A model generated the notes under the pieces. It had not been told where the DNA came from. It searched no databases and saw only the letters and a program-made list of their open reading frames with translations. This document shows, in pieces, positions 35,378 through 38,499 of a DNA stretch of 64,000 nucleotides. Position 1 is the stretch's first letter. Each line of letters opens with the position of its first letter. Source of the stretch: Bacteroidales bacterium (GTDB lineage Bacteria > Bacteroidota > Bacteroidia > Bacteroidales > UBA4417); assembly GCA_963665485.1 (NCBI GenBank), contig OY762227.1, positions 3,919,293 through 3,983,292 on the forward strand. Direction: 5' to 3'. A program made the position numbers and the translations under genes.

Positions 35378-37285
35378 TTAGCGAGCTACAATAACCTTGT
35401 GGATTTGCACAGTGCTACCCTGAACTACCTTAACAAAAAAGAAGTTACCTCTATCGGGCAAGGTAATAGTATAACCCCCGGAAGCAGATTCGGAGTATGG
35501 GAAATCAGGGTATCTTTTACCTTGTAAATCAAACACTTCAATATAGACATTACCAGAATTATTATTGTCAGGAAGAATATTGATGACACCTGTGCACGGA
35601 TTGGGTGAAAGAATGGCCCTGACATCAATAAATCCTTCTTTAACAATTGAATCCGAATTAAAGGCATTGCTAACTACTAACTTTACATTCATTTTACCAA
35701 AGCGGTCAAATAGGACTCCTGCAGGGTTTTGCGCTGTCGATTCCGTTGGCTTGCCACCCTGGAAATACCAATGCCATTTAGTAGGTTTACCAGCTGAAAG
35801 GTCCTGGAAATTAATGGTTCCACCGATAGGAATAACAAAAGTATTAGCTGAAAAATCAGCTACGGCGAGGTTATTATTAAATGAACCAGGCATTTTAAGA
35901 ATCCCTTCAGCTTCTAATATATTCCCAGGATCAAGCCATGGTTTTAGTTGCATATCAGCGGTGGTTCCGTTTGATTCCCAGGAGTAGGAAACTTTCCCGA
36001 ACATATCTACCCCCGCTTCGTTATTACACCCACTTTCCCCACCGGTTAGTGTTCCTATTATCAGTCCTTCATCATCAAACAAAGGAGATCCTGATGAACC
36101 ACCCTCAGTGACACCAAAACCATTTACAGTTTGTGCCCAGCTTACTGTCCAATGAGTATACGGAGTTGATCCCCAGTTGCCGGACCCCAAAAACGTATTG
36201 TATGTAGATATTTTCTTTACATCGCCATCGGGATGATGAATGCAAACACCTGAAGCAGAATTGCCGCTTCCCGCATCCCAACCGCAATAAAACGCGTTGT
36301 ATTGAGCAGGAATATTTTTCAGACTTTGCATTAAAAGGAAATCGGAGCCAATATCCGAAGTGGTAGAACTAATTGCAAGTTTCTTAACTCCAACAACTGT
36401 CGACTGCGTAGTAGCCGAAGGAACACAACCGGTGTATTCATAATTAAAATAAAAAATCCATTGCTCATAATCGGTAATAGTAGAAGCCCCGCCACTTCCA
36501 TCCTTACTGCAATGCGAAGCTGTAAGCAACAAACCTTTAAAATCCTGGGCAGTATTATTAAGAAGAGATCCAGAACAGGAATAATACCGTGAACCTACTT
36601 TAGTAAGGATTTTCACAACTCCCTGCTTTTGTTTCTGCCAGTTTTCACCTTCTGAGCAATTCACATTTACTTCGCATATTCCGGATGAAACAGATTTGGT
36701 TTTTTCGAAATCCAGAGCCTCAAAACCGCGATAAATATATACAAGGCCCGAAATATCAATACTTGCGTGTTCTTTAACCCAATCAGGTTCGTATAACTCC
36801 AATACCACCGCATCACCTGATAAAGGTCTGGTTGCAAATTTCTCATTCAGGGGAATTTCTGCTGAAGTCAACGCGCCTATCACAAATTTTTGGTTCTGCG
36901 TATATACAAAGACGTCAGCACCTGCAGGCAAACGTAATTCATTATAATTCAGGCCAATTGCCTGAGCTCCTTTACATAGTAAGGTAACCCGCCAGATACG
37001 CCCACCACCGGGAAGGTCTTCCCACTGGCCTGAGTTGTGGGTTGAAAATGATACAGGAACTTCCACTCCAACCCGGTATGATTTTTCATGCATTGCATCG
37101 TCGTAATCTTCCTTCTGAATGGAAAGCATATCAGGAGCGGCAATTTCTACCGGGAAAAATTGCGATTTCAAACTCTGTCGAAACTGGAAACTCCGGGGAA
37201 CTCCTCCCCTGTCAACCTGGCCAAATACAGTAGAATTGACTGATCCAAAGAAAATTACAACAAATAATACGAGTATATATTTCAA
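35378..37285 (-). CDS. Secreted S1-family (trypsin-fold, lysyl-endopeptidase-like) serine protease with a PKD domain and a T9SS type-A C-terminal domain
   Basis: The catalytic His is in LLLTASHC and the Ser in TEGGSSGSPLF. A PKD-like segment follows (FSANTFVIPIGGTINFQDLS..WHWYF..G). The C-terminus is ILSPNPCTGVINI..IEVFDLQGKRY....IHKVIVAR. There is no in-frame ATG at the 5' end. The possible starts are TTG 37285 (giving MKYILVLFVVIFFGSVNSTVFGQ) or TTG 37312. Confidence 0.8.
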   Translation of the reverse strand: MKYILVLFVVIFFGSVNSTVFGQVDRGGVPRSFQFRQSLKSQFFPVEIAAPDMLSIQKEDYDDAMHEKSYRVGVEVPVSFSTHNSGQWEDLPGGGRIWRVTLLCKGAQAIGLNYNELRLPAGADVFVYTQNQKFVIGALTSAEIPLNEKFATRPLSGDAVVLELYEPDWVKEHASIDISGLVYIYRGFEALDFEKTKSVSSGICEVNVNCSEGENWQKQKQGVVKILTKVGSRYYSCSGSLLNNTAQDFKGLLLTASHCSKDGSGGASTITDYEQWIFYFNYEYTGCVPSATTQSTVVGVKKLAISSTTSDIGSDFLLMQSLKNIPAQYNAFYCGWDAGSGNSASGVCIHHPDGDVKKISTYNTFLGSGNWGSTPYTHWTVSWAQTVNGFGVTEGGSSGSPLFDDEGLIIGTLTGGESGCNNEAGVDMFGKVSYSWESNGTTADMQLKPWLDPGNILEAEGILKMPGSFNNNLAVADFSANTFVIPIGGTINFQDLSAGKPTKWHWYFQGGKPTESTAQNPAGVLFDRFGKMNVKLVVSNAFNSDSIVKEGFIDVRAILSPNPCTGVINILPDNNNSGNVYIEVFDLQGKRYPDFPYSESASGGYTITLPDRGNFFFVKVVQGSTVQIHKVIVAR

Positions 37286-37418
37286 TTGAGACGCATTTTG
37301 AAATTGAGACAAAAGTACTTAAAAAAACAATGAACTAAGAGAATGAGTAGCATCTTACCTGAATAGCATAGATTTCCAGCTTTTAACAGAACTGGCTCAA
37401 AAAAAAAAAAATCCGGCG

Positions 37419-38258: not shown

Positions 38259-38259
38259 T

Positions 38260-38268
38260 GGGGGGGGG
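38260..38268. repeat. G9 (C9 on the coding strand) homopolymer, 1 nt upstream of the mqnD start codon
   Basis: The sequence reads ..agtttCATtGGGGGGGGGaatgg.., which is nine consecutive G. Confidence 0.95.
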
Positions 38269-38270
38269 AA

Positions 38271-38396
38271 TGGTTAATGGTTAATCGTTATTGGTTAATC
38301 GTTAATCGTTATTGGTCATTGGTTAATCGTTGTTGGTTAATCGTTGTTGGTTAATCGTTAATCGTTATTGGATAGTGGTGAATCGTTATTGGTTAA
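38271..38396. repeat. Heptanucleotide tandem repeat, 18 copies of T(G/C)GTTAA-like units
   Basis: tggttaa tggttaa tcgttat tggttaa tcgttaa tcgttat tggtcat tggttaa tcgttgt tggttaa tcgttgt tggttaa tcgttaa tcgttat tggatag tggtgaa tcgttat tggttaa. That is 18 x 7 = 126 nt exactly. Confidence 0.95.
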
Positions 38397-38410
38397 CAGG
38401 GACTTGCGTT

Positions 38411-38455
38411 TTGGAATTTTAAATTTGAAATTTGGTGCTTGGAATTTTAAATTTG
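38411..38455. repeat. Two copies of the 17-nt direct repeat ttggaattttaaatttg (period 28 nt)
   Basis: The copies lie at 38411..38427 and 38439..38455. Each contains taaatttg (TAnnTTTG) on the plus strand. Confidence 0.9.
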
Positions 38456-38499
38456 GGATTTGCGAACCTTATTCTATTTTCTATTTTCCCTCACCTGCC

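Follow-up and report, generated by a model that had tools for sequence, protein, structure and literature searches.

A heptanucleotide repeat array in the mqnB-mqnD spacer of a Bacteroidales bacterium belongs to a polar, genome-wide class of period-7 and period-8 arrays

We know of no established function or origin for the tandem heptanucleotide arrays of bacteria, known in cyanobacteria as short tandemly repeated repetitive (STRR) sequences since 1990 and as the commonest long simple sequence repeats (SSRs) of prokaryotes since 2007. The STRR sequences of heterocystous cyanobacteria, reportedly described by Mazel and colleagues, are the cyanobacterial prototype. Short tandem repeats are also found at phase-variable contingency loci, for example in Haemophilus and Neisseria, where they are sited inside the open reading frames (ORFs) of surface or restriction genes or between the -35 and -10 boxes of such genes, and where they are variable within a population. 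Here we describe the repetitive 241-nt spacer between the menaquinone genes mqnB and mqnD in the complete genome of a Bacteroidales bacterium (5.47 Mb, 39.9% G+C). It lies in a 64-kb stretch of that genome, G000:C1:3919293-3983292, which is the window referred to below. This spacer is best read as a leader-type member of a genome- and genus-wide class of intergenic tandem arrays with a period of 7 (and 8) nt, which are heptameric long SSRs of the STRR kind.

Heptamers of this general type occur in Xanthomonas (GGGAATC) and Nostoc PCC 7120 (GGGGAYT) at about 100-190 sites per genome, most of them intergenic (Rehm et al. 2015, PMC4692102). In the 0-50 bp before an ORF it is the non-coding strand that is rich in G, and in the 0-50 bp past a stop codon it is the coding strand, with arrays that sometimes overlap the stop; there is no preference for the leading or lagging strand and the locations are conserved (PMC4692102). 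Direct repeats of TAACTGA are found in marine Beggiatoaceae, in cyanobacteria and in five Bacteroidetes (MacGregor 2015, PMC4679880), the last of which contradict the suggestion, made in an earlier sequence-only reading of the window, that such arrays had not been described in Bacteroidota. The TAACTGA repeats are 'forward' directly before starts and reversed past a stop, related genomes have no TAACTGA in the corresponding spacers, and for genes without Shine-Dalgarno sites a role in translation has been proposed (PMC4679880). In the 2007 survey of long SSRs (LSSRs) by Mrazek et al., as it is recounted in PMC4679880, SSRs of 5-11 nt were over-represented, heptanucleotides were the commonest and polymerase slippage was proposed as their origin; this account of the survey gives no strand rule, and its sample does not include the source genus.

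The two genes are co-directional on the minus strand with mqnB upstream of mqnD, and the identities assigned to them in the sequence-only reading are borne out by matches to TIGR03664 and PF02621 (Table 1). On the sense strand the mqnB stop is followed by a G-rich, C-poor module, a G-poor period-14 module of CAAATTTAAAATTC type, 18 heptamers of WTAACSA type, a tract of nine C residues (C9), a single A and the ATG of mqnD. The tract, the heptamers, two 17-mers and two plus-strand TAnnTTTG motifs all lie exactly where that reading had placed them. On the plus strand the heptamers are TGGTTAA (seven copies), TCGTTAT (four), TCGTTAA and TCGTTGT (two each) and three singletons, which on the sense strand read TTAACCA, ATAACGA, TTAACGA, ACAACGA and three variants. 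The array includes a higher-order repeat of 56 nt, with a Tandem Repeats Finder (TRF) score of 202 and an identity of 0.87 at lag 56 vs 0.71 at lag 7. The two copies of the 17-mer ttggaattttaaatttg, at 38411-38427 and 38439-38455, are 28 nt (4 x 7) apart from start to start, and TAAATTTG is found on the plus strand at 38420 and 38448. Because a further period-7 piece, (TTCTATT)2.4 on the plus strand at 38472-38488, and the period-14 array are present besides the 18 heptamers, the entire spacer is built on a period of 7. The final 204 nt of the sense spacer consist of 43% A, 28% C, 22% T and 6% G. Start-type triplets are scarce when judged by the 3 of 64 possible trinucleotides that are ATG, GTG or TTG, there being one GTG and one ATG in the 244-nt sense stretch that includes the mqnB stop.

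Table 1. Coordinates in the window of the two genes and of the elements in the spacer between them.
Feature	Position	Strand	Remarks
mqnD (menaquinone, futalosine pathway), 279 aa	37419..38258	-	start codon 38258-38256; PF02621 E 1e-69
C9 on sense strand (G9 on plus)	38260..38268	-	single A between tract and mqnD ATG
Leader array, 18 heptamers, WTAACSA type on sense	38271..38396	-	in register, period 7
Sole ATG upstream of mqnD in the G-poor leader stretch, sense strand	38302..38319	-	from variant unit ATGACCA; 5-codon frame
Period-14 G-poor module, sense CAAATTTAAAATTC type, holds both 17-mers	38410..38461	-	
Match to Bacteroidota promoter consensus, TTTG-N20-TAAATTTG	38424..38455	+	antisense into mqnB
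G-rich, C-poor trailer module, GGCAGGTGAGGG then (GAAAATA)2.4 on sense	38462..38499	-	immediately 3' of mqnB stop
mqnB (futalosine hydrolase), 231 aa	38500..39195	-	TIGR03664 154.8 bits (cut-off 124.7); PF01048

Arrays of this kind are common in the source genome. A lag-identity detector run over the whole genome found 171 arrays with period 7 and 63 with period 8, compared with 1, 7, 7 and 3 arrays with periods 5, 6, 9 and 10, and TRF agrees with this census. The excess of period 7 is far beyond chance. Most of the period-7 arrays are intergenic; 121 of the 171 lie outside ORFs of at least 150 aa, which make up 86% of the genome, and 156 lie outside the ORF-based gene calls. Arrays near gene borders fall into 57 unit families, the commonest heptamer units in the genome being TAACTCA and TAACTTA. 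The density is 0.38 arrays per kb of spacer between convergent genes, 0.22 between co-directional genes and 0.083 between divergent genes. The scarcity in divergent spacers and the richness in convergent spacers indicate that the arrays shun promoter regions and prefer gene ends. The class is also present in related genomes. In 400 kb of a congener (G003) there are 27 period-7 and 4 period-8 arrays, with 0-1 for each other period from 5 to 12. Arrays of at least the form WTAACSA x4 were looked for more widely; among 45 genomes from the source GTDB genus 18 have them, as do 20 of 300 sampled high-quality Bacteroidota genomes, with a concentration in one family (15/49). The mqnB-mqnD spacer has what characterises heptameric long SSRs and STRR-like intergenic arrays, namely a 7-nt tandem unit, dispersed copies with a period-7 excess, a non-coding site and a placement rule.

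The placement rule is one of strand. Of the 36 arrays located up to 40 nt before a start codon, 31 are G-poor and C-rich on the sense strand and 3 are G-rich; of the 85 located up to 40 nt past a stop codon, 66 are G-rich and C-poor and 12 are C-rich (Fisher p 1.4e-14 for the contrast between starts and stops). Period-8 arrays have the same polarity, with ratios of 15:1 (C-rich:G-rich) at starts and 22:6 (G-rich:C-rich) at stops. The rule spans all 57 unit families, and one unit can serve at both ends; AACTCAT precedes six starts and, in the opposite orientation, ATGAGTT follows six stops. It is replicated in the 400 kb of the congener, where starts have six C-rich and no G-rich arrays and stops have four G-rich and one C-rich, and at the mqnD loci of close relatives (starts 6:0, stops 4:0). 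Many spacers contain a G-rich array from 0-15 nt past the stop and then a C-rich array up to the next start, the mqnB-mqnD spacer being one of them, and the locus thus belongs to a large polar class of period-7 and period-8 arrays. Leaders without arrays are G-depleted too, with 10% G vs 18% C in their last 20 nt, and trailers without arrays have no G/C skew.

Replication-strand bias was considered as a cause of the polarity and rejected, as the rule is valid for genes on both replication strands and the genes are split 51:49. The cumulative GC skew has its minimum at 5.445 Mb and its maximum at 3.449 Mb, so that the replichores are unequal at about 3.5 and 2.0 Mb, and genes have no preference for the leading strand (2062/4023). 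An origin of the polarity in inverted-pair cassettes, in which complementary arrays bracket a gene, was rejected since only a handful of arrays fit. Examples of genes inside such inverted pairs are a 360-nt gene at G000 3174923-3175228 and a 624-nt gene flanked by arrays at 5032195 and 5032873. Past the mqnD stop there is no complementary array, only a run of 13 T residues (T13). This run, at 37399-37411 of the window on the minus strand, begins 8 nt past the stop and has no hairpin before it.

The arrays resemble those of Xanthomonas and Nostoc in their period of 7, number of sites per genome, mostly intergenic position, identical placement rule and lack of replication-strand bias, and the array at mqnD, which is G-poor on the sense strand and adjoins the ATG, complies with the rule given for those genera (PMC4692102). 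Unlike the arrays described here, the Xanthomonas and Nostoc heptamers form G-quadruplexes, and each genus has a single unit family, compared with 57 families without G tracts in the source genome, which also has period-8 arrays and belongs to a different phylum. GGGAATC is never tandem in the source genome, and TGGTTAA and TCGTTAA lack the run of at least three G per unit, in at least four units, that marks the G-quadruplex heptamers. The TAACTGA repeats are similar in that heptamers adjoin starts, are reversed after a stop and are missing from related genomes at the same spacer (PMC4679880), and the commonest units here are one base from TAACTGA. The differences are that arrays here have up to tens of units vs 2-6 in the Beggiatoaceae genome, that the units are many and that the majority of arrays lie after stops; TAACTGA itself is nowhere tandem in the source genome, where it occurs as 1022 single copies. 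With the cyanobacterial STRR sequences the arrays share the 7-nt unit, tandem amplification and many dispersed non-coding sites. The host is a Bacteroidales bacterium, unlike that of the STRR sequences, and none of STRR1-3 (CCCCAGT, TTGGTCA and CAACAGT) occurs even twice in tandem anywhere in the source genome; the likeness to TTGGTCA (STRR2) that had been noticed in this spacer comes from a single variant unit. The locus therefore shares with the described systems the class and the placement rule and not the named units (STRR1-3, TAACTGA and GGGAATC).

The MqnD relatives of the source genome are Lentimicrobiaceae and other Bacteroidales metagenome-assembled genomes, in all of which mqnD starts with ATGAAA at the identical position. 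About 30 related mqnB-mqnD spacers, of 57 to 443 nt, were compared. In seven relatives, which fall outside the array-bearing clade on the MqnD tree, the spacer is repeat-free and 57-63 nt long. The remaining relatives form one clade (support 80/89, ultrafast bootstrap/SH-like approximate likelihood ratio test), with spacers of 109-443 nt, most of which bear arrays. The layout of the source genome is common to L001, L081/L082, L083, L084, L085 and L087, consisting of a GGAAAATAG-type trailer, CAAATTCC, WTAACSA units, a C-rich tract and the ATG, although in L001 no part of it other than the heptamer array and the C-rich tract can be made out. These relatives have 2 to 11 WTAACSA-like units vs 17-18 in the source genome, and homologous leader arrays of other lengths are present in L001, L081/L082 and L084. 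CAAATTCC, which is related to the period-14 module, is at the equivalent place in L083, L085 and L087, and repeats of GGAAAATAG type come after the mqnB stop in L013, L081, L083, L085 and L087. In other relatives the units are AATCCGC, AATCCGA, ACATCCC or AACTCAT, and there are also a period-8 array and a 14-mer present about 17 times. The 14-mer, of GACCATTGTAT type, lies before the C-rich tract and ATG in a spacer of 443 nt (L009:417-861). Even close sisters differ in the unit; L052 has AACTCAT and L081 has WTAACSA, L004 has ACATCCC and L006 has AATCCGC. The array in the relatives invariably adjoins the ATG and is poor in G when read in the sense direction. Position and polarity are thus conserved, and unit and copy number turn over. 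To what was known of heptamer arrays the source genome adds this well-sampled locus, at which fixed position and polarity with changing units in about 30 relatives separate composition and structure from sequence-specific recognition.

The polarity has a counterpart in the predicted structure of the RNA. The sense RNA of the spacer (271 nt) has a predicted folding energy of -19.1 kcal/mol compared with -29.7 +/- 4.0 for shuffled sequences (z +2.67); none of the 200 shuffles folds less stably, and hardly any base is paired in the centroid. The antisense RNA is predicted to fold at -82 kcal/mol (z -5.1), since G-U pairing enables a G/T-rich strand to fold back on itself. Genome-wide, leader arrays have mean energies of -0.035 kcal/mol/nt on the sense and -0.154 on the antisense strand, with an array-free background of -0.101; the values for trailer arrays are -0.128, -0.054 and -0.157. 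In the region from -100 to +20 of mqnD the sense strand is the less structured one in 16 of 16 array-bearing relatives, the means being -0.065 for sense and -0.183 for antisense, and relatives with a repeat-free short spacer have -0.103. The sense RNA of the spacer is therefore predicted to be unfolded, and it is nearly free of start codons. A long-range pairing of the box after the mqnB stop with the mqnD start was rejected; it is seen in the minimum-energy fold but carries no weight in the ensemble, and the RNA is less stably folded than any of its 200 shuffles. No Rfam family matched at E <=1 between positions 37000 and 39500 of the window.

We consider it reasonably probable that a slippage-born heptameric repeat array has been retained in the orientation in which mqnD receives an intercistronic leader that is unstructured and poor in G. 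Arrays would arise and be resized by slipped-strand mispairing or unequal recombination, and their persistence would be filtered at the level of RNA, such that before starts only the orientation yielding G-poor RNA survives. A G-poor leader RNA would contain almost no AUG, GUG or UUG and be unable to fold, whereas its G/U-rich complement would fold strongly via G-U pairs. Because no TAnnTTTG (-7) motif is present on the sense strand of the spacer, of mqnB or of 14 related spacers, mqnD is probably co-transcribed with mqnB, and the array would then be a long, structure-free intercistronic leader for mqnD. Such a leader would suit the Shine-Dalgarno-independent, structure-sensitive initiation of Bacteroidota. 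The array would at most tune the expression of mqnD, it would neither be required nor act as an on/off switch. Further additions of the source genome to what was known are the breadth of unit families under one rule, with their period-8 companions, and the G-U-based asymmetry of folding, which is a candidate explanation of how leaders are oriented. The idea that the overall pattern suggests is that, in organisms that initiate without Shine-Dalgarno pairing, arrays may persist at sites where they provide a leader that cannot fold and contains no start codons.

Several points weigh against this explanation. Seven relatives have short, repeat-free spacers, which means that the array is not essential and perhaps no more than tolerated. 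In Flavobacterium johnsoniae an A at -3 favours translation initiation (2019, PMC6847099), and the mqnD leader has no A at this place, since positions -2 to -10 are all C. RNA structure explains the orientation of leader arrays well but not that of the G-rich arrays 0-15 nt past stops, array-free trailers being unskewed, and it gives no reason for the periods of 7 and 8. A role of trailer arrays as partners of intrinsic terminators was rejected, as a terminator-like hairpin follows 5 of 66 of them vs 206 of 1438 controls. The gene borders behind the statistics are simple ORF-based calls, made without annotation, and both co-transcription and an effect on translation are steps that we infer.

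The composition of the leader allows a different interpretation, in which 200 nt of C-rich, G-poor, unstructured and untranslated RNA form a site like those that load Rho (rut-like), and transcription of mqnD depends on how fast ribosomes start at mqnD. The 204-nt leader part, with the C and G content given above and predicted to be unfolded, is consistent with this, and Rho is encoded in the genome by an open frame of 706 aa. However, pyrimidine-C (YC) dinucleotides are few in the WTAACSA units and the G-poor design is general for leaders in the source genome, and we regard Rho loading as improbable.

The C tract raises the question of whether the locus can switch. The genome contains 7 genuine G/C runs of at least 8 nt, in agreement with the earlier remark that a C9 before a start codon is atypical. 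Of the five intergenic ones, three read as C9-C10 in the sense direction and lie 1-5 nt before a start codon; the genes concerned are mqnD, a pstB-like gene and a YbaK-like gene. The C10 and C9 tracts at G000:C1:2932767-2932776 and 3040032-3040040 are each 5 nt before a start and each follow a G-poor leader; one of the genes behind them encodes a pstB-like ABC ATPase, the other is YbaK-like. Relatives have shorter C runs near the mqnD ATG, up to C6 and in some interrupted by T. The recurrence of C runs before starts and their differences in length in relatives indicate that the tract is a recurrent, length-variable end-piece of G-poor leaders. Elsewhere, about 950 nt of near-pure poly-C occur in a long open frame at G000:C1:1212520-1213470, which looks like an assembly or masking artefact and not biology.

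A C9 tract and an SSR of 18 units are classical substrates for slippage, and the sequence-only reading had taken them for slipped-strand sites at which changes in length would alter the leader of mqnD. As a contingency locus it would switch or tune mqnD expression at high frequency within populations, by slippage in C9 or in heptamer copy number. Like the phase-variable loci, it has a homopolymer and short-unit tandem repeats beside a start codon. Long G/C runs are rare in the genome and yet three of them stand 1-5 nt before starts, C-run length and copy number vary between species, and the 56-nt higher-order repeat suggests a recent block duplication. Unlike at the phase-variable loci, the repeat is confined to the intercistronic leader; it is not part of an ORF, it does not separate promoter elements, and the sense strand has no promoter motif there. 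The genes behind the C9-C10 tracts are housekeeping genes, the approximately 230 arrays adjoin genes of every kind, and heptamer repeats are at more conserved locations than controls (Rehm 2015, PMC4692102). Two pairs of near-identical repeat-bearing contigs have spacers of equal length, L006 and L090 being three substitutions apart and L081 and L082 identical, which is evidence against very fast length switching; a metagenome scan for length variation within the species gave no contig above 87% protein identity. With the seven repeat-free relatives in addition, a contingency locus appears unlikely. In annotation, spacers like this one should by default be taken neither for assembly errors nor for phase-variation switches. 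Of the earlier interpretation as a whole, the array class (dispersed over about 170 genome sites), the position in the mqnD leader, the variability of copy number and C-tract length, both of which differ between related species, and the oddity of C9 stand, and the novelty in Bacteroidota, the STRR2 match, the switch and an antisense promoter, discussed below, do not.

A period of 7-8 nt could also be the footprint of a protein that binds single-stranded RNA or DNA and coats the arrays as a multivalent platform, controlling translation or decay. S1, a cold-shock protein (Csp) and Avd-like four-helix-bundle proteins (PF05635) would be candidates, and binding of S1, Csp or CsrA has been proposed for the TAACTGA repeats (MacGregor 2015, PMC4679880). 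The confinement of the period to 7 and 8 fits such a platform. PF05635 genes, of which there are 18 copies, are next to period-7/8 arrays in 9 of 18 cases vs 338 of 4023 genes, an 11-fold enrichment (p 5e-6), with example sites at G000:C1 3174752-3175318, 2551859-2552833 and 4766742-4767512. Three PF05635 genes are flanked by arrays on both sides. However, one rule is common to 57 different unit families, the replacement of the mqnD unit between close sisters argues against sequence-specific recognition and there is no PF05635 gene near the mqnB-mqnD spacer; we give the binding platform a small chance. A broader proposal, which we regard as doubtful, is that the arrays are a system of RNA 'punctuation' of this lineage, in which gene borders would be marked by leader modules that are poor in G and cannot fold and by trailer modules that are rich in G and U and can. 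Either a protein with a footprint of 7-8 nt would read these modules, or a dedicated process linked to the PF05635 genes, which inverted arrays bracket in some cases, would make them. If true, this would supply a mechanism for the long-unexplained heptamer excess of bacteria.

The 17-mers had also been noted to carry TAnnTTTG motifs pointing antisense into mqnB. A real promoter on the plus strand (38424-38455) would produce RNA opposing mqnB, and the match to TTTG-N20-TAnnTTTG is exact, full matches being rare at 3 per 64 kb. The number expected by chance in the window is 2.2, however, and 38 of 100 shuffles give at least 3. The one full match in the spacer has no counterpart on the plus strand of 14 of 14 related spacers, which have GGAATTTG instead, and there is no Rfam family match. 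The match is probably a by-product of the repeat, and a functional antisense promoter is very unlikely. A scan for sigma-70-type promoters gave nothing informative, the sigma-70 consensus being the wrong promoter type for the phylum.

Some minor observations concern the genes and the spacer. The top relative of the mqnD product with a solved structure is Thermus MqnD TTHA1568 (E 1.3e-65). A GGCAGG...CCTGCC hairpin motif, of the type CCTGCCTGAC-loop-GTCAGGCAGG, is found at 38489-38499 of the window and recurs beside or inside heptamer arrays across the genus. It is also present upstream of mqnD in L006 and L090, where it sits in the middle of the AATCCGC array, in L014 and in G003:C4 (L162-L181). 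This motif may be a small element resembling repetitive extragenic palindromes (REP) or miniature inverted-repeat transposable elements (MITE).

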